Shown: piece after piece, positions 7,501 through 50,449 of the stretch | Numbering within the stretch: the stretch's first letter is position 1 | Layout: each line of letters opens with the position of its first letter | From: a virus | Direction: 5' to 3' (one strand) | DNA length: 64,000 bases | IMG/VR virus record: IMGVR_UViG_3300005253_000946 | Made by a program: the position numbers and the translations under genes | The notes under the pieces: model-generated | Seen by the model: only the letters and a program-made list of their open reading frames with translations | Told to the model about the DNA's origin: nothing | Database searches by the model: none

Positions 7501-8470
7501 CCCTGTTATAGAACCAGACAAGTCTGCTTGGGATGATACCCCTCTTGGCGGTGGACCTATAGATCTCACTAGGAGATCATTTACTTTTACAGGAGACGAT
7601 ACTCCTGGTGGGTACGTAGAGTTCTTAGCTGACGATTTTGTTTTTGATGATCTGACAGCTATCTCTAATTTGTACACACAAGATTTCTCGACTATTAGTG
7701 AAGGTCCTCTAAACAATAGAGCTGGCTGGTTTACACCAGTAGATCCAGTTACATCTATGCCCCTTGTTCGAGATAATATAGTAACGGACACAATAGTTAC
7801 CTCTCTTAATGATCTACTGGTTGTTCCTGATGTAGAGACCTCGATAGGAGAACAATGGTTCTTTACTGTTAAACCCAATAATGGGTCTATATTTGGGGCA
7901 ATTGTACAGTCTCCTCCAGTAACGATAGGCTTAGGAGGTCTCTCAACAGTCTATGATGCTATAGTCGGTGTGCCTTATGAAATAATGGTACAGACAGTAG
8001 GTAAGCAGCATCCTTATACGTTTGAGTGGACAGTTGTTACATCTCCGAACGGTAGAGATCCTGAAATAGATGACTCTACTAAACAACGAACTTCGGTAAC
8101 GTTTAGGCAACCGGGTGATTTTACAATGCGTTGTAAAGTTATAGGAGCTGGTGTGGCGGCTAAATTTGTAGAGATACCAATCAGAGTAGCCCCATCTGTA
8201 AGTGTATCTGGTACGGTATTTGGAGATTCTAATGGGGGAGTAGCCGATACATACGTACCTGTTGCGTCTGAGGTAGAATCTGGAGAGTATACTCCAGCAT
8301 ATCTATGGGAGATAATAGAAGAACCTATACCTGGAGCAGGATTTTTAGACTCTCCTTTAAGTCCTTTGACAGCTCTAATTACTAACGTTGTCGGAGACTA
8401 CACACTTAGATTAATAGTAGTATCCAATGCTAAAGTGAACACAGCTTTCTTTAAAATTAAGGTGACATAA
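4517..8470 (+). CDS. Large virion adhesin-like protein: lectin-like (LamG/ConA-type) domains, three Ig-like repeats and C-terminal PKD-like domains
   Basis: 1317 aa. Three repeats of Y-x-Y-x-D-P-x2-D-P-E-S-G-S-E-I-R-W ... L-x-V-P-x3-T-x-I-G-E-x-W-x3-V-x-P-x-D/N-G. F-x-G-x3-G-x-L-x-G-Q-x-G-W lectin-like motifs. C-terminal YTFEWTVVTSP..PGDFTMR and YLWEIIEEP..GDYTLRL. Confidence 0.65.
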   Translation: MATNVFNIGAFEGPTYSLGTLNGQDGWAGGNPANFTVIADPTGGGNGQVVEMTSGISTGFSKSLIGSPVGFGDWDVTAKVYIALGGKVEVGLEKGEVRSVTIEDQNGTDVLVTFEDGFTKVVLGAVASAWVTVRQVFDYRNSDIKCYVDTVLENTAKLDDVLRSGADNVQVTAYGAAITYMADVSVDYLSIPFATSINQSPNPTAEGFEDLLFSYLFGDSNGQSEAGSQIRWRHTPSPIDKALELRDIGPSVFTGMDNPNRQSAGFNINTATSTPEDWDYRLKFSIPSSSEGFITGPLVVVIWVVDSGGYLFQLMLEYDGTTLSVYTTDYSTGTFVTTLALDTVHDIYILPTWDGASSTATLDINGTLYSPAWPVEGPDGGLTHAFLFDARPHDLGDGYQELGGYGGVIEFSQITVRKITGGPTSILTEDFQGLNVGSIQGQNVAVGPEIWTYLGNINNFGDDVGHVVPLGGGNVVPALNNLLTVPAASTVEGFYRAEVIPKNSETTSGRPYVSPFPTEVISLTNPPPTADPAFINPLVPFVVDDLFADYTYYDPNSDPESGSEIRWESIAAPSGNRYLQLKAYGTTPENEGWEAVMREVGGPVNLKTIRYTFDFTIPVGLPTDASVWMILVNGTGYEIPVRYYWDGANVKVDVYSGGYSTVVGSVSTTAGVQHNLVITISWNNPNFSGSIEVDAGGPVVIASTAANAAGGPAAQSIILVAGYLLANGFGEMLLDNIDIQDITGAPVVIFSEGFSGLETGDLISQDSWTSSGDPTVASPRVVSAGGEAVEESTYDDLTIVPNAATSIGEVWRYRVHPNDGTIFGQWVTSTEARIIEVQPIALNPFITPFIPADEDDLTANYTYSHPTDPESGSEIRWHKAIYDRGMVIRRRGSLADAAILDMGGGLTTNTIQYRLRVRSPSFSTAGNTKVILTNGDGTFAKIMFFTTDGLGGNVTVGLFGAIPGSILPDTWYTMILTVDWATRLPTVFSFDDGINPVIEPDKSAWDDTPLGGGPIDLTRRSFTFTGDDTPGGYVEFLADDFVFDDLTAISNLYTQDFSTISEGPLNNRAGWFTPVDPVTSMPLVRDNIVTDTIVTSLNDLLVVPDVETSIGEQWFFTVKPNNGSIFGAIVQSPPVTIGLGGLSTVYDAIVGVPYEIMVQTVGKQHPYTFEWTVVTSPNGRDPEIDDSTKQRTSVTFRQPGDFTMRCKVIGAGVAAKFVEIPIRVAPSVSVSGTVFGDSNGGVADTYVPVASEVESGEYTPAYLWEIIEEPIPGAGFLDSPLSPLTALITNVVGDYTLRLIVVSNAKVNTAFFKIKVT

Positions 8471-11211
8471 TGGGTGGCGGTGCCGGAGGTAGACTTCATC
8501 TACGATTGTTCCTTGATGGTATTGAGATTCCTGTAGTCGGGGCTAATGTCACTACTACAATCAACGCGCCTGCTAGAGCGCAGATTAGAATCATCCCTAC
8601 AGATTTGGCTAAATACATTCAGCCTAGAACTACTGTACAGCTTTTTTACTATGACTATACTGGTATTGAAATAAAGACTGAAGATTCAGCAGAACGTGCC
8701 TCATCCGGTGTTATTGAAGCTGATCTATTAGATATAACCTCTACAGACCCTCCTAATGATGCGCCTTTAACTAAGTCAAAGTTAACTGCCGATACTAAGG
8801 CGTTATTAGGCGAAGGTAAAGATATTGGCAATATGTATTCTGGAGATGTTTTAAACAAGTATAGGGTATTGTTTAAAGGTGAAGTGTCTGGGTGGCAGTG
8901 GTCTAAGTCAGCTCAAGGAAATAGGGTTATATCTTTAGAGTGTTTAGACGATACCAACTATTTCGATTTCATTTACCAGACGTACTTAAATGTGGGTTCT
9001 ATTGCCCAGTCCCAAATGACTATGTTTCTACAAGGTCAGGATCATAATTATACATTTTTGGCGGCGCAATTCTTTGAAGCAACAAACTGGATCACACGAT
9101 TGTTCAGCCCTGGCGGTAGTCCTTTTCTACTCGACAGATACAAAGTGAAGTTTCAAGGAATTAATGGCTTATTAGCCGGGTTTGTCAGGATTATAGCAGC
9201 AGTATCTGGTGTAGATCCAGGACCTGCCGGGGGTAGAATACTTAATATCTTTTTCAGAGAAGCTCTTCTTAGAAATAGAATACTAGATCAAGTTTACGCA
9301 GCTGAAAATGACGATACAGCCATCAAACTTATGGAAACTACTGTTTTTTTTCAATCTATACAAAACACTATTTCAGAACTCGGAGCTAACCAAGCCACAT
9401 TGAGAGATATGTTAAAGCTGTCGCTGACTCCTATATATTACACGCACGCTCCTATAACTACTCCGTATTATAATCCAGACAAAGACTCTCTTTATACATT
9501 GATGATGAAACCGGAATTGTTTTTTGCTCCCCCTCCATCGTGTAACTTAATATTTCCAGATGAGTACACATCTGTATCTTACGCACGTAATTACTTAGCT
9601 GAACCTACAAGGTTATTGGTTCAGGAGCGTGCTACTGTAGCTACTGGTGGAGCAGGCGCACAAGATATGCAACCTATGCATTTCGCACCAGCTACAACTG
9701 CTGTAATAGAATCAGTCAAGAAGATAGAGGCTGGGCAGAATATACCTGGGGTTGTACCTGGTAGTGGAGCTTTCAGTAAATTTCTGTCTTTAAAACACCC
9801 ACACGAACAGTTCACAGGCCCAATCCCGGTCTGGCAATCTATAAGTCAGTACCCTAGCTATACAGCTACTAAAGCTGCAGCAGGGCAACCAACTCCCCAC
9901 ATAACAGATACAGCCAACTATGAATTCTATAAAATGAGATTCGGAACTAGAATGGCAAATGTTACTGCCAAGTTCTTACCGAGGTTAGTATGTGGGTTGC
10001 CTGCCGCTGTAATAGATAAACCTGTCTTACAAAGTGAATTAGATGAATCTCATCCGTCTCACTTACTTGGTAGTATCATTACTCTTACTCACAGTGTAGA
10101 TGCTGTTAGTGGTGGTACCACTTCGTTTACTTTAGAAAAGGTACGAATGTGGGATGAGTCTTTGAGTGGGTACGCTGTCGGAACTGAGGGCCAGATATAT
10201 AAGTTCCTAACGGTTACAAATGCTCGTTTAGGTACCGCAGCTCCTACTGTTATACCGATTGAAAAAATTATTGCCCCAAAGTGGTTAGATAAGGATGTGT
10301 ATGGGAATGAAAATATAGGCCCTAAGTTTTATGCACCATTATTAGGGTGTGGTAGTATGATTGATTCTGTAAAAGTAGGTTACTTGGATGAGGAGGAGGA
10401 AGCTGACAAAGCTAGAGAAGTGGCCGAGACAGTAGTTAGAGGAATAATTACCAGCAACTCCGGTTTATTTGGTATAGAGTTTACTCCAGGTGAAACAGAG
10501 GATTCAGATATATTATTTCGTACTAATGCTACTCAACGAGCTTCTGCCAGTATCCACGACGCGGATTCTCCTTTAAATACTGCTACTACTGTAGGTGAGT
10601 TTAGAGACGCACTTACAGCAGAATTGTCTAACACTCCTGTGAGTATTAACAAGTCTATAGAAGTATTGGCAGATGCATACAGTCGTCTGTCTAGAGGAAA
10701 AATAGCAGACATACAAAATTTTATAAACACAATTACTTTCAGACCAATTGCGAAATTGTTAGATATTATAGATCCTGAAGCAATTACTGCTTCTCTAATT
10801 CAGATAGGTGTTCTCTCAGATCCTATAGAAGAAGCAACTAGTATACTCGAAGACATAGCACTAACCACAGCTGGTGAAGTAAATCCTAGGGATGCTGATG
10901 CAGCTACTATGGCTCAGTTAGCTAATGAGATTAGGTATGATGACAGAGATCCAAAATTTGTTTCAGGTCCGACTATTCAATTTGAGTCAGACAAGCTAAC
11001 TCCTAAGTTCAATGTCTTATATGTAGGTAGGCCATTTGCTAGAGCACAAACGGAAGGGGATCCAGTATCTGGTACCCCAGTTACTGCCTCAACTGGAGCT
11101 GTTGAAGTTGAGGGCGTCCAAGTTGTAAAAGACCCTGTACTAAAAGCCCGCCAGACTATAATATTAAAATATAGGCGACAGCTTATACGGTCTAGAGGTT
11201 TTGTAGGATAA
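8470..11211 (+). CDS. Putative baseplate hub / tail protein (gp27/gpD-like N-terminus)
   Basis: 913 aa. N-terminal RLFLDGIEIPVVGANVTTTINAPARAQIRI..TTVQLFY..LFKGEVSGWQW..ISLECLD pattern resembles contractile-tail hub proteins. Position upstream of gp25 and baseplate J. Confidence 0.5.
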   Translation: MGGGAGGRLHLRLFLDGIEIPVVGANVTTTINAPARAQIRIIPTDLAKYIQPRTTVQLFYYDYTGIEIKTEDSAERASSGVIEADLLDITSTDPPNDAPLTKSKLTADTKALLGEGKDIGNMYSGDVLNKYRVLFKGEVSGWQWSKSAQGNRVISLECLDDTNYFDFIYQTYLNVGSIAQSQMTMFLQGQDHNYTFLAAQFFEATNWITRLFSPGGSPFLLDRYKVKFQGINGLLAGFVRIIAAVSGVDPGPAGGRILNIFFREALLRNRILDQVYAAENDDTAIKLMETTVFFQSIQNTISELGANQATLRDMLKLSLTPIYYTHAPITTPYYNPDKDSLYTLMMKPELFFAPPPSCNLIFPDEYTSVSYARNYLAEPTRLLVQERATVATGGAGAQDMQPMHFAPATTAVIESVKKIEAGQNIPGVVPGSGAFSKFLSLKHPHEQFTGPIPVWQSISQYPSYTATKAAAGQPTPHITDTANYEFYKMRFGTRMANVTAKFLPRLVCGLPAAVIDKPVLQSELDESHPSHLLGSIITLTHSVDAVSGGTTSFTLEKVRMWDESLSGYAVGTEGQIYKFLTVTNARLGTAAPTVIPIEKIIAPKWLDKDVYGNENIGPKFYAPLLGCGSMIDSVKVGYLDEEEEADKAREVAETVVRGIITSNSGLFGIEFTPGETEDSDILFRTNATQRASASIHDADSPLNTATTVGEFRDALTAELSNTPVSINKSIEVLADAYSRLSRGKIADIQNFINTITFRPIAKLLDIIDPEAITASLIQIGVLSDPIEEATSILEDIALTTAGEVNPRDADAATMAQLANEIRYDDRDPKFVSGPTIQFESDKLTPKFNVLYVGRPFARAQTEGDPVSGTPVTASTGAVEVEGVQVVKDPVLKARQTIILKYRRQLIRSRGFVG

Positions 11212-11215
11212 ATCG

Positions 11216-11244
11216 TTGACAGTACTGAGTAATTCTTTAATACT
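11216..11244 (+). promoter_or_regulatory. Sigma70-like promoter TTGACA-N17-AATACT overlapped by a TACTGAG(G)TAAT direct repeat
   Basis: Perfect -35 at 11216-11221 and -10-like at 11239-11244, 9 nt before ATG 11254. Repeat copies start at 11223 and 11241. Confidence 0.45.
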
Positions 11245-11253
11245 GAGGTAATC

Positions 11254-11535
11254 ATGGACTCTACATATTGGACATCGTTTAAAGACGAACTAACTAAGCT
11301 AGGAGCATTGCCTTCTAAGAGTCTCCATGTGACTCCAGGAGCTGATCCTGGGCAACGTAGGATACTTGGAAACAGCCCTGCTCCTACGATGGGTAGTCTA
11401 ACAGCGTCAATGGCTCCAAATTCTTTAGCGTCTAAAGATCTTGGATCTAAAGTTTTAGGTAACCCGCAGATGATGCAAAAAATGATAAATATGTCTAAAG
11501 CTATTAAAGACATCAAGCTTCAAAAGGCAATGTGA
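11254..11535 (+). CDS. Small hypothetical protein with F-x-D-E-L-x-K-L-G motif (putative internal virion protein)
   Basis: 93 aa, GAGGT SD. MDSTYWTSFKDELTKLGAL. Confidence 0.6.
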   Translation: MDSTYWTSFKDELTKLGALPSKSLHVTPGADPGQRRILGNSPAPTMGSLTASMAPNSLASKDLGSKVLGNPQMMQKMINMSKAIKDIKLQKAM

Positions 11536-12173
11536 TGGCTATCCTGACGTTTAAAGTTGAAGATTCTACTACTGTACCAGACCCTACTCCGATAGAGGGT
11601 GTAACACTTTCGATATTTGAAGGAGACGAAGAACTTGCTTCTTTCCTTATCAATTCTGTAATCGGTACAGATGTGTCTCTCCCTGATGGTATTTATTCTC
11701 TAATTTTACACAAACCTAATTATGCGTTCTCTACGAACGTAGTAACTCTTGTAGTAGCTGGGGTTGATTTCGAACAAATTTTAGAAGGATCTGGTCTGGA
11801 CTTTACAGTATCGTCTCCAGACGAGAATCTTTTAACAGCTTATGTTAATCTAGTAGACCCTTCTGGAAAGGCTATACCTTTCCAGAAGATTCTGATTGAG
11901 ATAGAGACAGTACCTTCTGGCACAGTTGGAGGTTTTACTTCGACTAGCGGAAATGTGATTATAGAGACTGACGATACTGGATACGCAGAAACACTTCTTC
12001 CTAAAGGAGCCTCAGTAGGGGTTTCAGTAGTAGGACGAAAAGGTATGTATAGAAGGCTCACACTACCTGCATCGGCTGGCGATCTGAGAGTAGACCTCTT
12101 CGAATTGTTCGGAGAGGCTCCAGACTATTGGAAACCGCAACGTTCCAGAACTTTCCCATTCGAGGTCTCTTAG
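11532..12173 (+). CDS. Virion protein with two prealbumin/carboxypeptidase-regulatory-like Ig domains
   Basis: 213 aa. PIEGVTLSIF..LPDGIYSLILHKPNYAF and LVDPSGKAIP..ETDDTGYAETLLPKGAS. Confidence 0.5.
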   Translation: MMAILTFKVEDSTTVPDPTPIEGVTLSIFEGDEELASFLINSVIGTDVSLPDGIYSLILHKPNYAFSTNVVTLVVAGVDFEQILEGSGLDFTVSSPDENLLTAYVNLVDPSGKAIPFQKILIEIETVPSGTVGGFTSTSGNVIIETDDTGYAETLLPKGASVGVSVVGRKGMYRRLTLPASAGDLRVDLFELFGEAPDYWKPQRSRTFPFEVS

Positions 12174-12183
12174 GAGAAGAACA

Positions 12184-12579
12184 ATGAATATTGAAGAAAT
12201 GCGTAAATTAGCCGCTGTTATATTAGAGGTAGAAAAACCGGAGCAGGAATTTGTTAAAGAGGGATCTATCGAAGAGATCCATATCTTAGCTGGATTCTTA
12301 CTACAAAAAGAAGCCGGTTTATTATCAGGAGCTGCTAAGAAAGCTAAGACACTATTATCTCCTGCCGCAACTACCACAATTAGGCCTGCTGGAGCTGTGA
12401 GAGGTTCTCAAGCGTATGGGCGTGGTATAGTCGACATCTCAGGTCAGACAGCGTCTAGAGTGAAGCCGTCAGTTACAGCTAGGTACGGAAAGGCTGCTGT
12501 AGAAGGTGAGAAGAAAACTATGATGATGGGCGGTAGGTCTGTAACTAAAACACGCCGTGGCGGTAAATGGGTTTTATAA
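12184..12579 (+). CDS. Basic hypothetical protein with K-x-A motifs (putative internal virion protein)
   Basis: 131 aa, AGGAG SD. MRKLAA, FVKEGS, LLQKEAG; Arg/Lys-rich C-half. Confidence 0.6.
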   Translation: MNIEEMRKLAAVILEVEKPEQEFVKEGSIEEIHILAGFLLQKEAGLLSGAAKKAKTLLSPAATTTIRPAGAVRGSQAYGRGIVDISGQTASRVKPSVTARYGKAAVEGEKKTMMMGGRSVTKTRRGGKWVL

Positions 12580-12585
12580 GCATCG

Positions 12586-13404
12586 ATGAATGATCTAGCA
12601 TTAGATGAATTTGCTCACCTTCTTTTTGATGGTGAGGAAGAGGTATTAGAGAAAGAGTCTTTCGCTAAGAAGATGACTCCTATTGCCCCTCTAACTACTA
12701 CTCAACTAAGAAGTCGCCAGAAGAAAGAAGTTCAACTTTACGATACATGGAAACAGGCTCCGACTAAGCAGAACTTAACTCCGTTGATGAAGTCTTTGTC
12801 TAACATCACGAATATGTATACCCAAAGACATGCTACCAGTTGGGCTATACCAAGAAGCGCAGTGGAAGCTGAAGTTAAGATAAAGACTCTCCAAGCCTTA
12901 AACACCTTCGACCCTTCCTATGGGGTTAAGTTAAGTACACATCTCCAACATCAATTAAAATCTGTAGGGAGATTCATCAAAAAATATAATAACTTCGGTA
13001 AGATACCTGAACAAAGACAACGTAGGATTGGTGAGTTTAAACGTGCAAAGACTGAGTTACATGATATGCACGGCAGAGAACCTACTACTCAAGAGATGTC
13101 TGAATTTATGAGTTGGCCGATGTCTGAAGTAGCTTTGCTAGAAATAGAGATACGAGCCGACATTACTGGAGGAGAAGAAACAGGGGCTGTTACTACGTTC
13201 GAACGAAGTAAGGATTCTGATATTTTAAAACTTATTTATTATGAACTGACCCCAGAGGAAAAACTGGTGTACGAATACACTCTAGGCGCTCACGGTAAAC
13301 AAGAGCTTGGTACTACTGCGATAGCTAAACAGTTAAATATGGCCGCAGCGAAGGTGTCTAGAATAAAGAAGAAGATTGCTAACAAGATGCAGGTATACAC
13401 ATGA
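12586..13404 (+). CDS. RNA polymerase sigma-70 family factor (group 3, FliA/SigB/SigF-like)
   Basis: 272 aa. Region 2 ALNTFDPSYGVKLSTH (cf. FDPSRGVKFSTYA), region 3 HGREPTTQEMSEFMSW (cf. GREPT.EEIAE.LG), region 4 LTPEEKLVYEYTLG..GTTAIAKQLNMAAAKVSRIKKK (HTH). Confidence 0.9.
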   Translation: MNDLALDEFAHLLFDGEEEVLEKESFAKKMTPIAPLTTTQLRSRQKKEVQLYDTWKQAPTKQNLTPLMKSLSNITNMYTQRHATSWAIPRSAVEAEVKIKTLQALNTFDPSYGVKLSTHLQHQLKSVGRFIKKYNNFGKIPEQRQRRIGEFKRAKTELHDMHGREPTTQEMSEFMSWPMSEVALLEIEIRADITGGEETGAVTTFERSKDSDILKLIYYELTPEEKLVYEYTLGAHGKQELGTTAIAKQLNMAAAKVSRIKKKIANKMQVYT

Positions 13405-13604
13405 GTATCGAAACAGCTATTTTACAACTGAACATCTTAAAAGTATCATTCTCAGAATGGAAATTGAAGGAACAACTTAGGTTAAATGAGGAAGTCGTGT
13501 TCCTCAGCACTATTGAAACCTCACCTAGCAGCTTAATCGATGAGACCACAGCGTCTACTTCAGCTGTAGTAACTACAGACATTAACAAATTACTGGAGCT
13601 TTAA
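13401..13604 (+). CDS. Hypothetical protein
   Basis: 67 aa, ATGA overlap with the sigma gene. Confidence 0.5.
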   Translation: MSIETAILQLNILKVSFSEWKLKEQLRLNEEVVFLSTIETSPSSLIDETTASTSAVVTTDINKLLEL

Positions 13605-18062: not shown

Positions 18063-18316
18063 GCGTATTACCTAGAGTAGTTCTAATAGGAGCTTTTAAT
18101 GCAGCTTCTTTTGCACGTAGTCAGCAGACTACTGAAAGTATCTCTGCGCTAACTATAGATGAGCTAGTCCAGGAGGCTGTTTCTGTTATTCAAGATGAGG
18201 TAGTAGCCGATACAGGTAAGCCAGGTAAACTTGCTAGATTAGAACTTATAAGTAATGGGCTGGATGCGGCTATTGAATATTTTGAACAAGTACTTTCTAG
18301 TGGGTCTTTCTTATGA
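18059..18316 (+). CDS. Hypothetical protein
   Basis: 85 aa, GTGA and ATGA overlaps with both neighbours. Confidence 0.55.
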   Translation: MSVLPRVVLIGAFNAASFARSQQTTESISALTIDELVQEAVSVIQDEVVADTGKPGKLARLELISNGLDAAIEYFEQVLSSGSFL

Positions 18317-18753
18317 GTTTAGATTTAGGTTTAATTACATTCATACCAGGACCCGGAGATTACCAGAGAACTGCTCTCTGGGGATTTGGTGCAGATCCAG
18401 GTGTGTTATCTGGGATTGACAAATTAACTCAGAAGGTAGTGATGCTGCTTTTATCTGATCAAGGAACTGATATTCTTAATCCTGGTTTAGGAGGAGGGTT
18501 GAAGTCTCTTATAGGTAAGACGATGGACAAGCCTCACATAGCTGGTATGATGACCGCTATAGGTAACTCCGTAACTACGGTAGAACGTCAGATTTTTAAT
18601 TTACAAGCTGGAGAGCCTGTATCGCTTAGTGAAACATTACTTAGTTTAACGCTAATACAGGCTTCGTATGTGAAAGCTTTAACAACGATATTTATAGAGG
18701 TTAGGCTGGTTAACGCAGAAGGCGTGTTCAGCCTAGTCGGTATATTAGTATAG
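18313..18753 (+). CDS. Baseplate wedge protein, gp25/GPW-like
   Basis: 146 aa. LSGIDKLTQKVVMLLLSDQGTDILNPGLGGGLKSLIG matches the gp25-family I..ILLT..G.....P.FG..L signature. Immediately before baseplate J. Confidence 0.75.
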   Translation: MSLDLGLITFIPGPGDYQRTALWGFGADPGVLSGIDKLTQKVVMLLLSDQGTDILNPGLGGGLKSLIGKTMDKPHIAGMMTAIGNSVTTVERQIFNLQAGEPVSLSETLLSLTLIQASYVKALTTIFIEVRLVNAEGVFSLVGILV

Positions 18754-31599: not shown

Positions 31600-31973
31600 G
31601 CAACTGGGATAAATTCGCTGAGTGTTTAATGAAGACCGCTGAATCTTCTAATAAACCTCTCACCCTCTCCACTCCAAGAACATTCAAGACTCCTGTGTAC
31701 ATAGAGGCTGCTCCTAGTGGTGCGGATATCTCTCCACCCAAGAAAGTTAATAAGGTTCTGAAAGACGTAGGTCTAAGTGCTGGTGTAGCTGCAGGAGCAA
31801 CTGGTATAGGTAGAGCAATACTCAAGACTAAAAAATCAGTTAGGCCGGTTACTATCAAATTACCGAAAATGGGTAAGGTAACTATACCCGGTGAGTATTT
31901 AGCCGCAGCTGCAGCTGGAAGTCTTTACGGAGCAAAGAGCCTAGTAGTAACAGACAAGAATCCTAGTAGCTAA
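31596..31973 (+). CDS. Basic hypothetical protein with F-x3-L-x-K-T-A motif and Gly/Ala hydrophobic segments (putative internal virion protein)
   Basis: MSNWDKFAECLMKTAES; GLSAGVAAGATGIG; LAAAAAGSLYGA. Confidence 0.6.
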   Translation: MSNWDKFAECLMKTAESSNKPLTLSTPRTFKTPVYIEAAPSGADISPPKKVNKVLKDVGLSAGVAAGATGIGRAILKTKKSVRPVTIKLPKMGKVTIPGEYLAAAAAGSLYGAKSLVVTDKNPSS

Positions 31974-32002
31974 AAGAAAAGGGAGAGTCGAAACTCTCCC
32001 TT
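31972..32002 (-). terminator. Rho-independent terminator between convergent blocks (probably bidirectional)
   Basis: Stem AAGGGAGAG/CTCTCCCTT with a 6-nt loop. On the - strand it is followed by TTCTTTT. Confidence 0.8.
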
Positions 32003-32024
32003 CCCTTTGCGGCGTGCTCTAATG

Positions 32025-32804
32025 TTAGGCAAACATATCCGCTAGGTAGTTGTCTATCTGTACCATTAGACTCTCATAATCGGTGTCACCCTCATCATAC
32101 TCGATCCCTAGATTAAGTCCAGTCCATTGGATCAATCCTTCTAGGTCAAGGTGCTTCAAATCATCAGGTATAGTCAAATCCCTGAGTTCTTCGTCAGTGA
32201 GTCTAACATCGGGCGGTGTTTGACCTTCCACATACTCTCCGTCGCCGCCTGGGTCATTTTGTTCTCCATACTCTTCAGACTCTACTGCTTGTTTAGCAGC
32301 ACCTCGTGTTCTCTTCCTGGTAGTAGATTTTACTTCTTCTGCAGATTCGGTTTTCGGTCTCTCGAATCCAAGAGCTTCTCCGACAAAGTCGGTTAACTGA
32401 TCTACACATACGTGTAGGTCTACAACTTTAACTTGGAAGGCTGCTAACTCAGACTTAGTTGCAGCTAGTTCTTCTTGTAGTTTCGCTATAGCGTCGTCTG
32501 GAACTTCTACAGCCTTCTTTCGAGGTTCTCGTTTAACTTTAGGCTTATCTTCCTGTTCTTTGCCAGCAGCTTTCTTCTTAGGTTCAGGATCTTCTTTCTG
32601 ACCATCTGCTTCTGATTCCTTAACTATGAATTCAGCAGCTTTCTTCTTCATTTCCTTTAGATCCATACCCATTACCTCCTCACTGTATTTCATACCTCTC
32701 GATATGAGGAAGCGGTTGAGGTCTATACGAGTAGAGGAACCATCTTCAAGGCTCTCCAATGTGACATCTGGTTGGGCTAATTTACTGCCTTTTTTCTTAG
32801 ACAT
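32025..32804 (-). CDS. Hypothetical protein, highly charged (Lys/Glu-rich, acidic C-terminus)
   Basis: 259 aa, AGGAG SD. Confidence 0.7.
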   Translation of the reverse strand: MSKKKGSKLAQPDVTLESLEDGSSTRIDLNRFLISRGMKYSEEVMGMDLKEMKKKAAEFIVKESEADGQKEDPEPKKKAAGKEQEDKPKVKREPRKKAVEVPDDAIAKLQEELAATKSELAAFQVKVVDLHVCVDQLTDFVGEALGFERPKTESAEEVKSTTRKRTRGAAKQAVESEEYGEQNDPGGDGEYVEGQTPPDVRLTDEELRDLTIPDDLKHLDLEGLIQWTGLNLGIEYDEGDTDYESLMVQIDNYLADMFA

Positions 32805-32816
32805 TATATGTTCTCC

Positions 32817-33449
32817 TTAGAGTTTGAATTTTGGCATATCTGGACGGCCATTTAGGTGCGCCTTATTATCTAAATAACACTCAGTTACTTTACAACTTGG
32901 GCACATATAACAATCTGCATCGCACGACAACTGGCCTTCCATGTTCTTCCAGTCCTGTCTAATGAGATTGTTTATAGTACCTTTCAATTGGTCTACTACA
33001 CTGAACTCTTCTACATCCTTCTCCCCTCTTAAAATTTTCTTACAAGTCTCTAGGTCGGTACTTCTAGAAATGAAGTATCCATGCATACCCAGTATCTGTA
33101 AGATTTCGGTTTTGTTACATAAATCTAAGCCTGGTTCGTCTAGTATTAAGGCTTCTAACTCACGTTCTCGTTTACGTTTAGAGGCAGCAATCTTCTTGAT
33201 CGCTTTCTCAGCTTGCTCTTCTACAAATACCTTAGAAAGCTCTTGTATATTTTGAGAGAAACCTTCAGCTAGACCCATTAGTTCAGTACCCCATTGTCTG
33301 AGGATCTGGTGCTGCATGTCATCGTCGTCGCCTATAGAGATTAGTGAACCTCCAATAGATTCTAGACGTTGAAGTAGGTGTTCAGCAACAGCTATAGCTG
33401 CTCCTCGTTCTTTAGTACCTATCTTTTTTGGTTTGTCATTTCCAGCCAT
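32817..33449 (-). CDS. Hypothetical protein with C-terminal Cys cluster
   Basis: 210 aa. LSCDADCYMCPSCKVTECY. Confidence 0.65.
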   Translation of the reverse strand: MAGNDKPKKIGTKERGAAIAVAEHLLQRLESIGGSLISIGDDDDMQHQILRQWGTELMGLAEGFSQNIQELSKVFVEEQAEKAIKKIAASKRKRERELEALILDEPGLDLCNKTEILQILGMHGYFISRSTDLETCKKILRGEKDVEEFSVVDQLKGTINNLIRQDWKNMEGQLSCDADCYMCPSCKVTECYLDNKAHLNGRPDMPKFKL

Positions 33450-41262: not shown

Positions 41263-41778
41263 TTATACCTCTTGTAGAAGTTTTGAGAGTGCGTCTTTAT
41301 CAGCCCATAACTTTTTTTGTATCTCGTATGGGTATTCTAAGGGTTTGATTAGTCCTAGTAAGTCTTTACCTCTCACTAAGAGTGGAGAAGTTATTGAGGC
41401 TTGCCTGTACAACTTAATTTGTAGTTGTGGATTGATAGCTATAGTCCTAAACATCTCAGACCGTATTGGGGTATACAGCTTGTTATTTCCGATGTCCGTT
41501 CTGACTGTGTCTGTTTTACCTAAACCTAATTCTTCATATGCAGGGAGAGACAATACTTCACTTTTAAGGTCTTTACGTTGAGCTATAACTGCCACATCCA
41601 GTTCTACATTACTTCTGTATTTAGAGACTGTTTGTAGGAAGTCTTCTTTGACTTCTACTCCGGTCAATGTGTCTAGTTCTTCTAGAGCTTCGGCTAACCT
41701 TGTACAGAATCTAGCGGAATGTTCTTTAAGAGCAACTAGCTCAAACGAATCCGCCACAAAAGTTTGTGGGGTAAACAT
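41263..41778 (-). CDS. Hypothetical protein
   Basis: 171 aa, AGGAG SD. Confidence 0.65.
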   Translation of the reverse strand: MFTPQTFVADSFELVALKEHSARFCTRLAEALEELDTLTGVEVKEDFLQTVSKYRSNVELDVAVIAQRKDLKSEVLSLPAYEELGLGKTDTVRTDIGNNKLYTPIRSEMFRTIAINPQLQIKLYRQASITSPLLVRGKDLLGLIKPLEYPYEIQKKLWADKDALSKLLQEV

Positions 41779-41796
41779 TAATTAACTCCTGGAAGA

Positions 41797-41826
41797 AGAT
41801 AGGGGTAGGAAAACCTACCCCTATCT
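41797..41826 (-). terminator. Perfect 13-bp hairpin after the SSB gene (terminator or mRNA-stabilising element)
   Basis: AGATAGGGGTAGG-AAAA-CCTACCCCTATCT. Weak U-tract (TCTT) on the - strand, just before the next gene's SD. Confidence 0.6.
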
Positions 41827-41841
41827 AGATCGTCGTGTGGT

Positions 41842-42834
41842 TTAGTAATTTGACGACTTACTACCCTCGAAGATATTTGGTTCTCCGAGTATAGCAGCTT
41901 GCTCGTCTAGTGTTGGCGCTACCAATATGCTTTGGAACTCGAACAACTCGATATGTTGTTTGAACTCCTTACCAAGCCTTCCTGTCTGACCCGATTTCTG
42001 GAGTTGTAACGCCGATTGTGTACCTTCACCGGCTTTCTTTATGTGTACGTCGACATCATAAATCTCGGTGCGTTCAGGATTATCACAACTTTCACAGTCT
42101 ATGACTTCCTCCGGTGTACCTTCGTAGTCACAGTGAGAACAAGAACCCTCACGACCAGAGAACTCATTAATTTCTTTGGGTGACCATTCAGTTAGATCGT
42201 CAGCAGAAACTATCTCTCCTTCACAGGCTGGACAGTCAAAAGATACTACATGGATATCTCCTCCACAACTTCTGCAGGTTTTACCTATGTGTTCTTGAAA
42301 CTCTCCGAGGTGCGACAGGTGTGATGGTCCGAGAGTTAACATACGGGCACCAGCGATAGTCATGTCCATATCCTTCTCGCAACTGCCTTTACAGGGTCTG
42401 GACATGGTACAGGGTTCGAAACGAGGCTTCTTACTAGAATCGTCGTTAGGCTTTAGATGCCCTACTGTATAGTCGATCAGTTGTAGGGGAGTCATAATCC
42501 TAAACGGACTGATGTGTTTTTTACCTGCAGATGCGTAATGGCAGCTAAGGCATCTTCCTTGCTTGTCTGTATCTGTCGAGCAGATCATGTTAAAGCCTTT
42601 ACGTTTACCATCTTTGCTGGGTCTGTTGATCCAATGCTCTTTATAGGAGAAGAGATCTGTATCTATACCGTCACCGTAAGGGACTTCGATGGTAATCTCG
42701 TTCTTTATAAATCTGACCTTGGCTGAGTCAGAATCTTTCTTTGGTGGCCAGAATGCGGGGATTCCGTGCCACTTAGGAAAATTACCTCCAGAACCTTTTA
42801 GATTCTTTTGTGCCTTGGTTTTGAACTTGTTCAT
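41842..42834 (-). CDS. Putative single-stranded DNA-binding protein (T4 gp32-like) with Cys-rich zinc modules
   Basis: KVRF..YKEHWI..GFNMICS..RCLSC; YDVDVHIKKAGEGTQS. Next to primase. 14 Cys. Confidence 0.6.
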   Translation of the reverse strand: MNKFKTKAQKNLKGSGGNFPKWHGIPAFWPPKKDSDSAKVRFIKNEITIEVPYGDGIDTDLFSYKEHWINRPSKDGKRKGFNMICSTDTDKQGRCLSCHYASAGKKHISPFRIMTPLQLIDYTVGHLKPNDDSSKKPRFEPCTMSRPCKGSCEKDMDMTIAGARMLTLGPSHLSHLGEFQEHIGKTCRSCGGDIHVVSFDCPACEGEIVSADDLTEWSPKEINEFSGREGSCSHCDYEGTPEEVIDCESCDNPERTEIYDVDVHIKKAGEGTQSALQLQKSGQTGRLGKEFKQHIELFEFQSILVAPTLDEQAAILGEPNIFEGSKSSNY

Positions 42835-43873: not shown

Positions 43874-45249
43874 TTAGGTTTTTTCCTTCTACCCATCTCT
43901 ACTGTTAAGTCCATATCACTTTCGTCGAACTCTCCTGGGTTATATACATCTGCCGTACGTTTCTCATTAACACCATCTTTCCGGTTCTGGTCTTCTTCGT
44001 AGTTTTCTTCAATCAGGCCTAAGAATCTTAGGTCTTGAGCCAGCCTAGCTCTTGCTCTAAATCCGTATAGAGCAGTCTCTCTGGCACCAGTTAGTACCCA
44101 ATCTATGTAGCCCTCACTTTTGTTGAACCGTAGTCTGATAATCAGATCGGCATCCTGACCAAAACTGTCTGCGTACGCTATATCATCTACATCAGACCCA
44201 CCTTTATTTTTAGCTTTAACTGCAGACCTATTTTGTTGGGTAGTACCTATTATAGGTATTTTTGTGGACTGAGCTAACTCTTTAAGGTCTTGAGTGATGT
44301 TATACATAGCTCTCCAGTCAGAAGTCTTACTGGTGCTACGGTCATCGCGCATAAGATAGATACCGTCTAAGAACACTATGTCTGGAGAGACCTCTTCAAT
44401 TTTAGCTCTTAATGCTGTTACACCGCCGCCAGACTGTCTTCTACGACCTCCGCTTTTTTGGGCGCTGATAATCAACCGTTTGTTCTTAGAGATATCTTTT
44501 ACTACTTGATTGAAACGCTGTTCTTCCAGAGTAGTGAGTTTACCTTGTCTGAATCGTCGGTAATCAAGTTTAGCAATAATGGCAGCACACCTACGCATTA
44601 AAGCCTTTTTAGACATCTCCTTTGTCTCTATTAACGTTTTATAACCTCTCTCAAACTTATGTACTGCCTCAGCTAGTAGCATCCATGTCTTCGCATTTTT
44701 AGGACGAGCGTAAAAAACAATAAAATCTTCTTCGTGTATACCACCCAACTCGGTGTTTAGAATGTCGAATCTCCACGGTATACCCGTGAGTCCTTTCTGC
44801 TCCTTAACCATGTAGTACTCTTCTTGTACTTCACTCATCCCATCGCCTATAACCATATCATCTGGATCGGAGTACCTACCAGAAAGAGTAGTAGACCCTG
44901 CCTGTAGCCTATCTAATGCAGAGAATGGTTCAGCTTCTACTACTTCAGCTATAGAAACTTGTAGATTGTTTATATCATTTTCCAGCAGAGCAGACTGGAC
45001 TTGGTCTAGAATAGCTTCCAGGGAATCTCTAGTAGGCCTAGGTAGTTCGACAGGACCCATCTTTTCAAAGAACATCTCTTTTGAAAGTACTGTACCAAAA
45101 TCTATATAGTTGGTCAGTATTTTCTCTAGAGCTTCGGAACAGTTTGGATTAGTCAGGTCAGCGGGTGTAATTCCTCGTCTGATAACCTCTTTCAGTTGTC
45201 CACTATAAATTATCTTACTGATTAAGAGTAGCTCCCAGTTAACCGGCAT
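43870..45249 (-). CDS. dnaB: Replicative DnaB-like helicase
   Basis: Variant Walker A ARPKNAKT, ETKEM, VFLDGIYLM, GTTQQNR, DIAYADSFGQDAD. Adjacent to primase. Confidence 0.85.
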   Translation of the reverse strand: MPVNWELLLISKIIYSGQLKEVIRRGITPADLTNPNCSEALEKILTNYIDFGTVLSKEMFFEKMGPVELPRPTRDSLEAILDQVQSALLENDINNLQVSIAEVVEAEPFSALDRLQAGSTTLSGRYSDPDDMVIGDGMSEVQEEYYMVKEQKGLTGIPWRFDILNTELGGIHEEDFIVFYARPKNAKTWMLLAEAVHKFERGYKTLIETKEMSKKALMRRCAAIIAKLDYRRFRQGKLTTLEEQRFNQVVKDISKNKRLIISAQKSGGRRRQSGGGVTALRAKIEEVSPDIVFLDGIYLMRDDRSTSKTSDWRAMYNITQDLKELAQSTKIPIIGTTQQNRSAVKAKNKGGSDVDDIAYADSFGQDADLIIRLRFNKSEGYIDWVLTGARETALYGFRARARLAQDLRFLGLIEENYEEDQNRKDGVNEKRTADVYNPGEFDESDMDLTVEMGRRKKPK

Positions 45250-45586
45250 CTAATTCAGACTCCTCAAAGTGTGCAAAGATGTCCTCTCCTGTTATTTCTT
45301 CTGCTTTACGCCTCAAATCTGTCTTTTTCCTCAAATCAATAGTTAGTTCTTCTGCGGTAGCCGGTGACACATCTTCGAATAAGACAGGTAGCAGTTCGTT
45401 GATCGCACTTTTTACTAATACCAGTATAGCATCGTGTACTTCTTTGGATGTTAGAGAAGGCCATGTACCGGCTCCGTATGATACTCCTTTATCATCTATC
45501 AATTCATACTCACAATTAGTGGTACCTGATTTGGCATTTATGTGGACAGACGAAAGCCTTATTCCAGTAATTTTAGATGCACTCAT
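45239..45586 (-). CDS. Hypothetical protein
   Basis: 115 aa, overlaps both neighbours. Confidence 0.6.
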   Translation of the reverse strand: MSASKITGIRLSSVHINAKSGTTNCEYELIDDKGVSYGAGTWPSLTSKEVHDAILVLVKSAINELLPVLFEDVSPATAEELTIDLRKKTDLRRKAEEITGEDIFAHFEESELDAG

Positions 45587-45798
45587 TGAGAACCTCCATT
45601 GAGAATGTCTGCCTTGAGAATCTCTAGATCACCCAATAGACTGCTGACACTGGTTTCTGTGTAAGCTATAAGGTGCTCTCCGTCTTTTGTTAAACCAATT
45701 ATAGCCACACGTTCTAATTCATCTTCGTGAGCAGATAGGAAGCCTACAACTCTCTCAGTAGACTTAGGTCTCAACTTAACTATGCTGTTGTTCGACAT
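45583..45798 (-). CDS. Hypothetical protein
   Basis: 71 aa from the ATG at 45798 (GGAGAAGG upstream). RVAIIGLTKDGEHLIAY. Confidence 0.55.
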   Translation of the reverse strand: MSNNSIVKLRPKSTERVVGFLSAHEDELERVAIIGLTKDGEHLIAYTETSVSSLLGDLEILKADILNGGSQ

Positions 45799-46231
45799 GC
45801 ACCTTCTCCTCAATTGTGACTGCCACACTACTGACTTTTACAGTTATAAAGTCCGACAGGTCAATATTGTTATTGTCTGCCCATATAGTTAAGGCTTTAG
45901 GATTTGCTTCTTTCACTATAATAGAGGTGTCTTTACCTTCTACGTCTATAGTCTCGGTTTCTAGACCAGGGAATTTCTTTAACAAAGCTTTTACATCAAT
46001 TATCTTGGTCTTTCTTTCTGTTAATTTGAACTCAATATCATCAAACGCTCTAGCGATCCCTTTTGACTTCACCCAAGTTTTTGACTTTTCCTCAAGTGTT
46101 TTAAGTTCATTAAGTATCAGGGTGTATTCTTCTAGAATATCTGCATTATCTTCTTCGAAACCCCGTACACGCTTCAGAGCCTTTATGTGTTCCTTAATCG
46201 GTTTAGGAATTAGTTTGTCTATCCTTCCCAT
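45776..46231 (-). CDS. Hypothetical phage protein
   Basis: 151 aa with AAGGA SD. Confidence 0.6.
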   Translation of the reverse strand: MGRIDKLIPKPIKEHIKALKRVRGFEEDNADILEEYTLILNELKTLEEKSKTWVKSKGIARAFDDIEFKLTERKTKIIDVKALLKKFPGLETETIDVEGKDTSIIVKEANPKALTIWADNNNIDLSDFITVKVSSVAVTIEEKVHVEQQHS

Positions 46232-46235
46232 ATCT

Positions 46236-46955
46236 CTATCCTTCCCGTAATTCTGTTATATCTCTTATAGGTATATCAATTTTGTTCTCAATTTTTTGAA
46301 ATGTATCTAGTGATGCCAACATCTTTTGTAGATCGAGAATAGTAGATACTATAGGACCATCTTTTTTGTTCTCACTCGGATTACGTAGTAAGTAAGATGG
46401 GTGAAATATAGGGAAGGCTGGGTAACGAACTGGACCGAACATCCCAGGAATCTCTACTGTATGCATTTCTCCCTTAGAAGATGTTATCTTTTTTTTATCA
46501 CCGAAGAACGCTGAGAGAGCTACGTTCCCTAATAATAAGACTATTAGAGGGTCTATGATGTAAATAGTTTCACACAAACGTTTCCAACAGTTAGTGATCT
46601 CATCTTTGGTGGGCTTCCTGTTACTAGGAGGTCGACACATCACAACATTTGTGGTGTACAAAACTTCAGTTCTGGGAGAATCTTTAGATATTAGACACAC
46701 TTGATGTAATAGTTTGTCTAACATCTTACCAGATGGACCTACGAAAGGTTCTCCTGTTAAATCTTCTTCCAATCCAGGTGCTTCACCTACGATCAGGATA
46801 TTGGCATTTAAGTTGCCCGTACCGAAAACGGTGTTACCTAACTCCTCGTCTTCAATTTTGGAGTCTAGTCTACACTGATACAGGTTCGAGCATTTCTTAC
46901 AATCTTTATACTGGGCTTCAAGTTCTTGTAATCGTTCTTGTTTAGTTAATAGCAC
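46236..46955 (-). CDS. udg: Uracil-DNA glycosylase, family 4 (4Fe-4S)
   Basis: CKKCSNL, VFGTGN..A.ILIVGEAPG..ED.TGEPFVG.SG, TNVVMCRPPSNRKP..EI.NC, FHPSYLLRN. Confidence 0.95.
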   Translation of the reverse strand: MLLTKQERLQELEAQYKDCKKCSNLYQCRLDSKIEDEELGNTVFGTGNLNANILIVGEAPGLEEDLTGEPFVGPSGKMLDKLLHQVCLISKDSPRTEVLYTTNVVMCRPPSNRKPTKDEITNCWKRLCETIYIIDPLIVLLLGNVALSAFFGDKKKITSSKGEMHTVEIPGMFGPVRYPAFPIFHPSYLLRNPSENKKDGPIVSTILDLQKMLASLDTFQKIENKIDIPIRDITELREG

Positions 46956-46967
46956 CCTTTTTTCCTC

Positions 46968-47339
46968 CTAGGGGTTTTTAGGTCTTGGTATTGAGTTGGC
47001 TGGTGCGAATTCTAGTCCACTGTTACGGCCTCTAAAACTTAGATACTCTTTTCGAATCTGACTCTCTGGGGAGTCAGTTATCTCTTGTAGAGCCACTGGC
47101 ATTATTTCTACTTTGACCAGTTCGTTTATACCAGGCTCTAGTGATAGAACCACTGTGATTTGTTGAGCCATCATCCCTTGGGGGCCTTGAACCATACCCA
47201 TCTGAACCAAAAGTCTGGCAGTTTTCTCTAGAACATATCTTTGTCCGAAAGAGGATCTAAGTGTTCCCACCTCTTCGTCGGAAAGTTCAGATATGTAATC
47301 TCTAGCCACTGAATCAGTTATGACAAATAGTTTGGACAT
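46968..47339 (-). CDS. Hypothetical protein
   Basis: 123 aa with GGAGG SD. Confidence 0.6.
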   Translation of the reverse strand: MSKLFVITDSVARDYISELSDEEVGTLRSSFGQRYVLEKTARLLVQMGMVQGPQGMMAQQITVVLSLEPGINELVKVEIMPVALQEITDSPESQIRKEYLSFRGRNSGLEFAPANSIPRPKNP

Positions 47340-47351
47340 TTTGTAGGCCTC

Positions 47352-48740: not shown

Positions 48741-49257
48741 CTTTAAATCTCCTGGTTAGAAAATAGTCTGAAACTTCTCTAGCTGCGGCAGATATAGCCC
48801 TTTCAATAGATCTTATTGCTACCTCAATCATTACCTCTTTAAAAGGTCTACTTTCCACTGCTTCTAGCAAAGGAGGTATTTCCCTTGGGTGGTTATGGTT
48901 TGTGCGATCAATATCTGTAGCACCACTATTACCTCCCCAAGCAGATATTTTACAAGAGGACCGTTTAGCGCACTTAACACACTCACGGTGACCTTCTTCA
49001 TAAGTTCCATAACATGGGTGAGTATCATATACTGAGCCTGCTCCTTTCGCTTTCTTAGATTTCTTTAACAACGGTCTCGATGCTTCATTGTTTATAGTTT
49101 CAGTTCTGCAACTAGATTTTTCGAAGCAGTATTCACATTCAGAATTACCATCCTCGTAGTGCATACTGTAACAGTAATCTCGATTATCTCTATCTCTCAT
49201 TGTAAGGTGTAGCTCCTCTTGGTTAAAAGTGGGTAACAAACTGCTGCGTGTAAACAT
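48706..49257 (-). CDS. Cys-rich protein with a duplicated C-Y-x7-8-E-C-x2-C-x4-S-C motif
   Basis: YCYSMHYEDGNSECEYCFEKSSC and PCYGTYEEGHRECVKCAKRSSC. Confidence 0.65.
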   Translation of the reverse strand: MFTRSSLLPTFNQEELHLTMRDRDNRDYCYSMHYEDGNSECEYCFEKSSCRTETINNEASRPLLKKSKKAKGAGSVYDTHPCYGTYEEGHRECVKCAKRSSCKISAWGGNSGATDIDRTNHNHPREIPPLLEAVESRPFKEVMIEVAIRSIERAISAAAREVSDYFLTRRFKVAKTKNITPKK

Positions 49258-49284
49258 CTTATGCTATTAAATCCGTACCCTTAC

Positions 49285-49313
49285 TTGACGTTAGAAGGCT
49301 ATTAGTAGAGAAT
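49285..49313 (+). promoter_or_regulatory. Possible sigma70-like promoter TTGACG-N17-GAGAAT for the head-gene block
   Basis: In the divergent intergenic region. GGAGG SD downstream before ATG 49353. Confidence 0.35.
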
Positions 49314-49352
49314 CATAATGAAACCCTGTATCCATAATCGGAGGCAAAAGTC

Positions 49353-50447: not shown

Positions 50448-50449
50448 AC

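Follow-up and report, generated by a model that had tools for sequence, protein, structure and literature searches.

The subject of this report is a sigma factor gene in a 64,000-nucleotide stretch of DNA from an uncultured marine-sediment phage (IMG/VR record IMGVR_UViG_3300005253_000946), which is referred to throughout as the window. The open reading frame (ORF) in question, located at positions 12586-13404, encodes a protein of the sigma70 family, and the same phage carries a gene for a single-chain beta-beta' RNA polymerase (RNAP). On balance, we consider it somewhat probable that this protein is the cognate factor of the phage RNAP, and that it is synthesized late in infection, goes into the particle along with the RNAP, and is injected to begin early transcription. 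According to this scheme, the product of ORF 12586-13404 would serve as the promoter-specificity subunit of the phage's own enzyme. Its gene would be transcribed late, within the baseplate gene block, and the protein would enter the particle with the RNAP, in the subclade of the window as a pro-protein with a short acidic leader ending in Lys-x-Ala/Ser. The holoenzyme, or its two parts, would come into the cell with the DNA, and the injected enzyme would start early or middle transcription at phage-specific promoters without host sigma. In many relatives these promoters would be of the extended -10 type, G-G-T-A-T-A-A-G, with a G replacing the -7 T that host sigma70 needs. The pairing of sigma with the phage RNAP, the injection, and the assignment of the promoter motif to sigma are inferred. 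An initial annotation of the window had also interpreted the protein as a cognate sigma, and the present analysis supports that interpretation in part.

The product of ORF 12586-13404 is a real sigma70-family protein. Its features are listed below, with confidence values given as predicted local distance difference test (pLDDT) scores.

12586-13404, plus strand: sigma70-family factor of 272 residues with sigma2, sigma3, and sigma4 domains and no region 1.1, from Pfam, NCBIfam, PHROG, AlphaFold2 (AF2), profile, and Foldseek results
12697-12990, plus strand: sigma2 domain, residues 38-135, four helices in the model, also covered by the profile alignment
13009-13152, plus strand: sigma3 domain, residues 142-189, three helices, the sole part to score over a Pfam cutoff
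13153-13209, plus strand: flexible linker of the region 3.2 type, residues 190-208, with pLDDT values of 58-69, no secondary structure, and a gapped alignment to the RpoS linker
13210-13398, plus strand: sigma4 domain, residues 209-271, four helices with pLDDT values of 94-98 and the recognition helix ...AAAKVSRIKKK

In the Pfam search only Sigma70_r3 passed its cutoff (29.1 bits versus 25.3, residues 148-182); Sigma70_r2 and Sigma70_r4 gave no match in the window protein. The NCBIfam SigB/F/G family aligned to residues 102-269 with an E-value of 1.2e-9 and a score far under the trusted cutoff, and PHROG 351 (RNA polymerase sigma factor) matched at 2.4e-12. A profile built from 73 sequences of the sigma family aligned end to end, from region 2.1 to region 4.2, with the RpoS and SigA chains of solved holoenzymes (best E-value 2.8e-19). 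The AF2 model, which was built on the family alignment, has a mean pLDDT of 86.8 and displays three helical domains and a disordered 3.2-type linker. All of the top Foldseek matches to this model are sigma factors, namely SigB, SigD, RpoS, and SigA. The alignment of sigma4 to region 4 of RpoS extends through the last RpoS helix, and within the recognition helix K-V-S is invariant in the family and K-V-S-R-I is invariant or nearly so. In all of the 150 best homologues, similarity to the window protein sets in at approximately its residue 43, where the homology core of the family starts.

The initial annotation had described a clear group 3 sigma70 with regions 2, 3, and 4. The three regions and the overall architecture are borne out by the profile, the model, and the Foldseek matches; the curated cutoffs for group 3 are not reached, with scores of 38.2 bits versus 234 for TIGR02980 and 27.9 versus 189.6 for FliA/WhiG. 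The term group 3 fits the architecture of the protein (no region 1.1, no non-conserved region, sigma3 present, and SigB/F/G as the best family) rather than its membership. Region 2.3 deserves comment. Where RpoS reads T-Y-A-T-W-W-I-R, the family consensus is T-h-v-t-n-r-l-k and the window protein reads T118-H-L-Q-H-Q. Of the region 2.3 aromatic residues (Y430, W433, and W434 in Escherichia coli numbering), only the first position is kept in the family alignment, as His or Trp. The tryptophan dyad used by cellular sigma factors to open the -10 element is missing in the window protein. These changes suggest altered -10 chemistry rather than loss of the fold. Binding to core RNAP and promoter-specific initiation are the activities suggested for a protein of this kind; the indirect signs of them here are the co-occurrence with the RNAP, the joint detection in Arash virions, and the flap-tip and clamp helices kept by the phage enzyme.

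The sigma family is a large, old, and essentially viral one rather than a recent capture. An exhaustive HMMER search with the family yielded 1496 clusters (50% identity) of viral and metagenome proteins at E<=1e-3, and 800 at E<=1e-10, and one scan of species genomes, 185,579 in all, gave only a single relative. The contig that carries this relative, CAZNAX010000001.1 (L154), is phage-sized at 174 kb and was binned with an uncultured Desulfatibacillum metagenome-assembled genome; it may be either a mis-binned phage or a hint as to the host of the marine-sediment members. An exact 40-mer from the sigma gene had no match in the JGI metagenome contigs; the sequencing runs listed for the sequence are DNA runs of marine-sediment metagenomes, possibly the source sample, with no RNA run among them. 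The nearest cultured phages are the Salmonella phage Arash (181 kb) and the Vibrio phages D69, D181, and D148 (187 kb). In each of them a sigma homologue lies near 11-12 kb and the RNAP near 130-150 kb.

A single sigma sequence retrieved no viral contigs, and a sigma alignment was needed as the query. Of the 35 viral contigs obtained in this manner 27 hold the RNAP, among them all nine with a completeness of 90% or more, and those that do not are fragments. When 46 contigs seeded with an RNAP alignment were searched for sigma, it was present in eight of the nine near-complete ones and in all seven of those within the clade. Sigma is missing from one 356-kb phage, whose match to the RNAP is itself distant and partial (27% identity), and a deep branch with a 26%-identical RNAP still has a sigma-like ORF of 302 residues. 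The identities of sigma and RNAP to the window proteins rise and fall together (Spearman 0.86, n=24). Both the co-occurrence and the co-divergence that the initial annotation had put forward as checks were found, and sigma accompanies the RNAP in most of the relatives that bear it. In one relative (G062), the lineage sigma at 45048-45758 is joined by a second sigma of 270 residues (10665-11321; L176 312-1124, minus strand), which matches RpoD_Cterm at 9e-58. This second protein has the appearance of a sigma recently acquired from a host by a phage that encodes its own RNAP.

Evidence for packaging comes from mass spectrometry (MS) of Arash virions, which were prepared by sucrose gradient and pelleting (PMC10585845). 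The beta-type protein Gp206 gave 3516 spectra, the most of any protein, the beta'-type protein Gp216 gave 1210, and the sigma homologue Gp10 was detected with 24 unique peptides and 467 spectra (PMC10585845). By our own arithmetic (lengths of 1525, 606, and 234 residues), these values correspond to 2.3, 2.0, and 2.0 spectra per residue for beta, beta', and sigma, as compared to 1.5 for the portal protein. Crude as such counts are, they fit a roughly equimolar complex of sigma and core as a major particle component.

The presumed partner of sigma in the window lies 40 kb away from it. The elements of the RNAP that are relevant to sigma docking are as follows.

53608-59913, plus strand: single-chain beta-beta' RNAP of 2101 residues with beta (Rpb2_3, Rpb2_6) and beta' (Rpb1_1/2/3/5) domains, adjoining the portal gene
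55783-55830, plus strand: equivalent of the beta flap-tip helix, residues 726-741, in gapless BLASTP alignment to E. coli beta 894-909
57136-57282, plus strand: equivalent of the beta' clamp helices (coiled coil), residues 1177-1225, in gapless BLASTP alignment to E. coli beta' 262-309

The claim that the RNAP retains a flap-tip-like helix and a diverged beta' clamp coiled coil was confirmed by BLASTP against E. coli RpoB and RpoC, with no insertions or deletions. Residues 726-741, the flap-tip helix equivalent, read ELTKEQVMMRKFKSSL. The segment ELTKEQVMMRKF (residues 726-737, nucleotides 55783-55818) runs ungapped against E. coli beta 894-905, and GLNGIYKGV...LRTEIYDALQAF (residues 1183-1226) falls in the clamp-helix stretch aligned to beta' 262-309. 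Across nine aligned RNAPs of the family, neither segment changes in length or loses its helical character. The docking elements are thus present, but sequence alone cannot tell which sigma factor they fit.

Residues 2021-2101 of the RNAP (window 59668-59913) form a C-terminal domain of approximately 75 residues that follows a non-conserved linker and is 40-58% identical in relatives, above the average for the RNAP. The idea that these C-terminal 80 residues constitute a separate gene in relatives was rejected, as they lie in the same open frame there. The RNAP frames of two IMG/VR relatives, G025 (87011-92782) and G034 (45207-51020), each contain four in-frame TGA codons, and these phages may be TGA-recoded members of the lineage.

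One alternative is that the phage protein takes the place of host sigma on the host core, which it then directs to middle or late promoters of the phage, in the manner of T4 gp55, SPO1 gp28/gp34, and phiEco32 gp36, with its co-occurrence with the RNAP only reflecting that both are core genes. In favor of this alternative, the docking helices of the phage RNAP are poorly conserved, the window protein has the complete sigma2-3-4 make-up of cellular factors, sigma factors thought to work with the host core are common in large phages that lack an RNAP, and the nearly cellular, RpoD-like sigma of G062 shows that the lineage interacts with host-type transcription. The gene, however, lies in a late virion block rather than among early or middle regulators, and its homologue is abundant in Arash particles, equal per residue to beta and beta'. 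In addition, the lineage sigma is far removed from the cellular families (best E-value 1e-9, versus 9e-58 for the host-derived sigma of G062) and is found in every complete RNAP-bearing relative tested. We regard a host-directed role as unlikely.

The N-terminal segment of the window sigma bears on how the protein might enter the particle.

12586-12660, plus strand: acidic leader, residues 1-25, ending in L-E-K-E-S (Phi-x-K-x-S), a candidate cleavable or targeting propeptide

The initial annotation had noted an acidic N-terminal extension that ends in LEKES and is akin to K-x-A leaders, and this description holds. Residues 1-25 include nine Asp or Glu residues and one Lys, for a net charge of approximately -8, the first 35 residues of the model are of low confidence, and Phi-x-K-x-A/S is conserved in the subclade. 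About half of the sigma homologues start at the homology core, without any extension. Cluster representatives extended at the N-terminus by 12 residues or more number 63, and the motif Phi-x-K-x-[AGS] occurs in 42 of them, versus 12.2 +/- 2.9 (maximum 22) when the extensions were shuffled in 2000 trials. It is usually positioned 5-20 residues from the start and is approximately six times denser in the extensions than in the sigma core. In the nearest loci (sigma identity 32-41%), nearly every sigma has the motif (LDKEA, LQKQA, LQKES, IEKVA, LEKLA, and others), and several small ORFs just upstream of sigma carry it as well, as do the ORFs of 93, 131, and 67 residues around sigma in the window. 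The leader is real and conserved within the subclade; its cleavage and a role in packaging are predicted.

A number of the sigma homologues (P0041, P0043, P0045, P0090, P0091, P0124, and P0126) have long N-terminal extensions that share the basic motif H-x-R-R-x(2-3)-G-G-K-x-V-x-V-x(2-3)-H-x-R. The C-terminus of the ORF upstream of the window sigma (12184-12579), ...TKTRRGGKWVL, resembles half of this motif. No Pfam domain was found in the long extensions, and their comparison with the upstream 131-residue ORF gave no significant similarity.

Region 1.1 is absent in many sigma groups, and the acidic segment could conceivably be its counterpart, an auto-inhibitory mimic of DNA rather than a cleavable targeting leader, with sigma otherwise acting as proposed above. 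Its net charge of approximately -8 over 25 residues, its flexibility in the model, and its absence from some functional relatives, as with region 1.1 in many sigma groups, are all compatible with such a role. The conserved part, however, is the short Phi-x-K-x-A/S motif at a fairly fixed N-terminal distance and not the acidity, for several leaders are neutral or basic, and the same motif heads unrelated small neighboring ORFs. An auto-inhibitory function of the segment is doubtful.

A third line of evidence concerns promoter-like motifs. The Arash genome has 18 exact matches to TGGTATAAG. Every one is on the minus strand, that of the non-structural genes, and none on the plus strand; the reversed-pattern control gave 0 and 1. 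Examples (OQ632216; loci L136-L153) are given below.

32937-32945, minus strand: Arash TGGTATAAG site
46632-46640, minus strand: Arash TGGTATAAG site
101564-101572, minus strand: Arash TGGTATAAG site

When aligned, the Arash sites yield the logo TGGTATAAGtaaaGTGTA, with no information in the -35 region, and most are followed within approximately 50 nucleotides by a visible Shine-Dalgarno sequence and a start codon. They look like a phage-specific class of promoters in a cultured phage. No mention of promoters was found in the Arash paper (PMC10585845). The Arash RNAP is split after approximately residue 1460 (window numbering) by a 4.8-kb insert, 134702-139329 (L134 8703-13330), of mostly opposite-strand genes, which has its own TGGTATAAG site at 139121-139129.

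Across 28 relatives, the strand opposite to sigma has 199 copies of GGTATAAG and the sigma strand 49, with 107 occurrences on both strands for the control pattern. Forward and reverse counts are 27/0 in G030, 2/27 in G062, 2/20 in G031, and 4/13 in G042, and the core recurs across relatives of very different base composition. The G030 sites often follow terminator-like hairpins and lie upstream of apparent start codons. A six-mer enrichment in the intergenic regions of relatives was noisy, yet it picked out parts of TCTTATACCAA and so pointed the way to the motif in Arash, whereas gapped-dyad counting on the whole of one relative (G063, 62% GC) was swamped by codon periodicity. The geometry of the motif is that of an extended -10 element, with G at -14, TATAA at -12 to -8, and G at -7. 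In sigma70 promoters, the T at -7 is the most conserved and is needed by host sigma70. A lineage-wide, host-independent promoter word would point to a recognition factor encoded by the lineage, for which the conserved sigma would be the natural choice. If sigma does read the motif, the protein would be needed ahead of the expression of its own late gene, which again would point to delivery in the particle.

The window itself contains almost no intergenic DNA. Four gaps, all before plus-strand virion blocks, hold TTGAC-N17-xAxxxT sites (11216, 22515, 49285, and 53530), and these four co-oriented intergenic sites compare with approximately 0.6 co-oriented TTGAC sites expected in that much sequence. 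They look like ordinary bacterial sigma70 promoters. The pattern GMAAW-N19-TAAG has only two matches in the window, both intragenic, versus 3.6 expected, and TGGTATAAG with at most one mismatch is at the chance level there (21 versus 21). The word CCTAAAAT, noted before late genes of Arash, has a genome-wide count of four, which is not above the count of five for its control.

From the late-operon placement of the gene, the initial annotation had suggested either positive feedback on late genes or packaging of sigma for injection. Packaging gains from the Arash virion proteome, the conserved leader, and the opposite-strand motif; late feedback gains nothing, and the late-block sites of the window look like ordinary TTGAC-N17-xAxxxT promoters. 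Least probable of the readings considered is a non-packaged sigma that pairs with newly made phage RNAP in the cell and drives the late genes along with its own operon, the Arash particle signal being contamination: the late position of the gene, the clearly inflated Arash list and mild purification, and late-block sites readable by a sigma4-bearing factor would suit it, but those sites match the ordinary sigma70 consensus and could be read without a phage factor, the motif specific to the lineage is found before non-structural genes on the opposite strand, contamination poorly explains why RNAP beta tops the spectra in Arash particles with sigma equal per residue, and the leader common to sigma and its small neighbors would have no role.

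Several observations weigh against a packaged and injected cognate sigma. Any pair of core genes in a genome passed on vertically would co-occur and co-diverge in this way, and the binding of sigma to the phage enzyme, as opposed to the host core, is a proposal. In the clamp helices, Arg 275 and Glu 295 of E. coli beta', which we take to matter for sigma binding, are both replaced by Leu in the phage RNAP. The mean pairwise column identity among the nine family RNAPs is 0.20 for the flap tip and 0.31 for the clamp helices, as compared to 0.39 for the whole enzyme. Particle evidence for sigma and RNAP comes from the relative Arash, in a preparation of modest stringency. The Arash list comprises 116 "virion" proteins, including ribonucleotide reductase, helicases, and a dNMP kinase, and its authors warn that abundant late proteins may be carried over (PMC10585845). 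The sigma factors of Arash and D69 have no leader, so the leader cannot be a general packaging route, and over all genes of the window Phi-x-K-x-[AGS] shows no significant enrichment (16 versus 11.9 +/- 3). Approximately a third of the relatives, and the window as well, either lack the GGTATAAG motif or have it at background level. The motif may belong to another factor or to host sigma70 rather than to the lineage sigma, and the conserved sigma4 domain contrasts with an Arash logo that has no conserved -35 element.

The gene neighborhood of sigma in the window comprises the following features.

8470-11211, plus strand: virion protein of 913 residues, syntenic with Arash gp8 (an MS-detected structural cell-wall hydrolase) and kept upstream of sigma in relatives
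11216-11244, plus strand: promoter-like site TTGACA-N17-AATACT, in the sole intergenic gap before the sigma sub-operon (from 11254) and its nearest candidate promoter
12184-12579, plus strand: ORF of 131 residues directly upstream of sigma, with three Phi-x-K-x-A/G motifs in its first 45 residues
13401-13604, plus strand: ORF of 67 residues overlapping the sigma stop codon (ATGA)
18313-18753, plus strand: baseplate-wedge-like protein, a weak match (PHROG 43/975, E ~5e-4), kept downstream of sigma in relatives

Sigma had been described as co-oriented with, and translationally coupled to, virion genes, and the arrangement is indeed tight. Its start codon lies 6 nucleotides past the stop codon of the 131-residue ORF, with no Shine-Dalgarno sequence there, its stop codon overlaps the start of the next ORF as ATGA, and the whole sits in a block running from the baseplate hub to the wedge. 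The tail/baseplate label itself derives from weak PHROG baseplate-wedge matches (E ~5e-4) and from synteny with MS-detected structural proteins of Arash; Pfam and PHROG searches on the neighboring virion genes gave almost no matches. The order of hub-like protein, sigma, and wedge is kept in approximately 30 loci as well as in Arash and D69, and homologues of the window ORFs at 101, 8470, 14340, 18313, and 18763 occur in that order in relatives. In Arash, gp10 (sigma) is positioned between gp8, the structural cell-wall hydrolase, and the structural genes gp12-16, and D69 is laid out alike. Small leader-bearing ORFs are found at the same upstream position in several relatives.

Four ORFs near sigma in the window (11254-11535, 12184-12579, 12586-13404, and 13401-13604) have Phi-x-K-x-[AGS] in their first 25 residues (LTKLG, MRKLA, LEKES, and ILKVS) and are interrupted only by a motif-less ORF of 213 residues at 11532-12173. 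They may represent a leader-tagged cassette within the baseplate block. Elsewhere in the window, strong GC-rich hairpins with T-runs at 41778-41842 and 31973-32025, located at a minus-strand gene end and a convergent strand-block junction, are probably intrinsic terminators.

The lineage breaks a known division, in that it combines a bacterial-type, one-chain core with a recognizable sigma, the two being co-inherited in every complete in-clade genome examined and both reported in Arash virions. A broader proposal, which is tentative and which we hold with less than even confidence, is that a widespread lineage of tailed phages of approximately 150-210 kb, of sub-jumbo to jumbo size, injects a self-contained, bacterial-style holoenzyme consisting of a single-chain beta-beta' without alpha or omega and a canonical though ancient viral sigma70-family factor. 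One subclade would load the factor via a cleavable K-x-A/S leader, and the enzyme would read an extended -10 element with G at -7, thereby insulating early transcription from host sigma70. If true, no other multisubunit RNAP of a virus would have been shown before it to work with a true sigma, and it would provide a minimal, two-polypeptide model of sigma-dependent initiation. Such an alpha-less, two-protein holoenzyme would allow sigma docking and -10 melting to be studied without the tryptophan dyad and with G at -7, would bear on whether viral RNAPs branched off from cellular ones before or after sigma dependence arose, and would constitute an orthogonal set of sigma, core, and promoter. 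The cultured phages Arash (Salmonella) and D69 (Vibrio) make the sigma/RNAP pairing open to bench work now.

The closest known system is Arash itself. Its Gp10, annotated as "RNA polymerase sigma factor RpoS" (OQ632216; PMC10585845), is 30% identical to the window sigma over 80% of the window protein. As in the window, the Arash sigma gene lies between a hub-like hydrolase and structural genes, and the homologous RNAP (Gp206/Gp216) is encoded beside the portal; all three proteins were detected in the particles. The Arash sigma differs in being leaderless, and its RNAP is split into chains of 1525 and 606 residues by the 4.8-kb insertion. The Arash sigma is listed as an annotation in the genome paper, with no functional work published (PMC10585845). 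The combination of sigma and a cellular-type core is mentioned in that paper only, as annotation, and the additions made here are the co-occurrence counts, the leader statistics, and the promoter motif.

The jumbo phages of the phiKZ-like and AR9/PBS-like groups also encode RNAPs of the beta/beta' type, one set of which is packaged and injected for early transcription, with a fifth subunit for promoter recognition (PMC7598289, PMC13282480). According to a 2021 comparative study and a 2026 review, these multisubunit enzymes consist of four to five polypeptides and have no sequence homologue of sigma, alpha, or omega. Indeed, gp68 is sigma-like in structure only, and gp226 is without sequence similarity to sigma. 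The phiKZ- and AR9-type cores are thus split and lack a sigma homologue, whereas the window phage has a one-chain core and a recognizable sigma70-family protein. Phage sigma factors, in turn, are found in phages without an RNAP and are thought to use the host core (2021 comparative study, 2026 review). Those of T4 (gp55), SPO1 (gp28 and gp33-34), and the RNAP-less jumbo phages are likewise sigma70-family proteins that are encoded by lytic phages and redirect transcription to phage promoters. The phages that use the host core in this manner have no RNAP of their own and keep their sigma genes among early and middle regulators, however, whereas the window phage does encode an RNAP and has its sigma gene in the baseplate block. 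We know of no report of sigma factors of the T4 gp55 or SPO1 type in virions.

With respect to the leader, the capsid-targeting sequence of T4 is found on internal proteins that are packaged and ejected, and it is removed by the prohead protease. The likeness lies in a short N-terminal peptide with a recurrent motif of the cleavage type at its end. In T4 this motif reads L/I-x-E, in contrast to K-x-A/S in the window subclade, for which cleavage and targeting are proposals drawn from such motifs. A possible analogue in logic is phage N4, which has a late polymerase gene, packages its virion RNAP and injects it for the early genes, uses phage-specific early promoters, and relies on host RNAP for the late genes; the late blocks of the window similarly carry host-like TTGAC-N17 sites. 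The N4 virion enzyme, unlike that proposed for the window phage, is single-subunit and T7-like, has no sigma, and reads hairpin promoters. The virus described here probably injects a ready-made transcription machine, and among the phage polymerases of this type that have been studied, none is known to be delivered with a canonical sigma.

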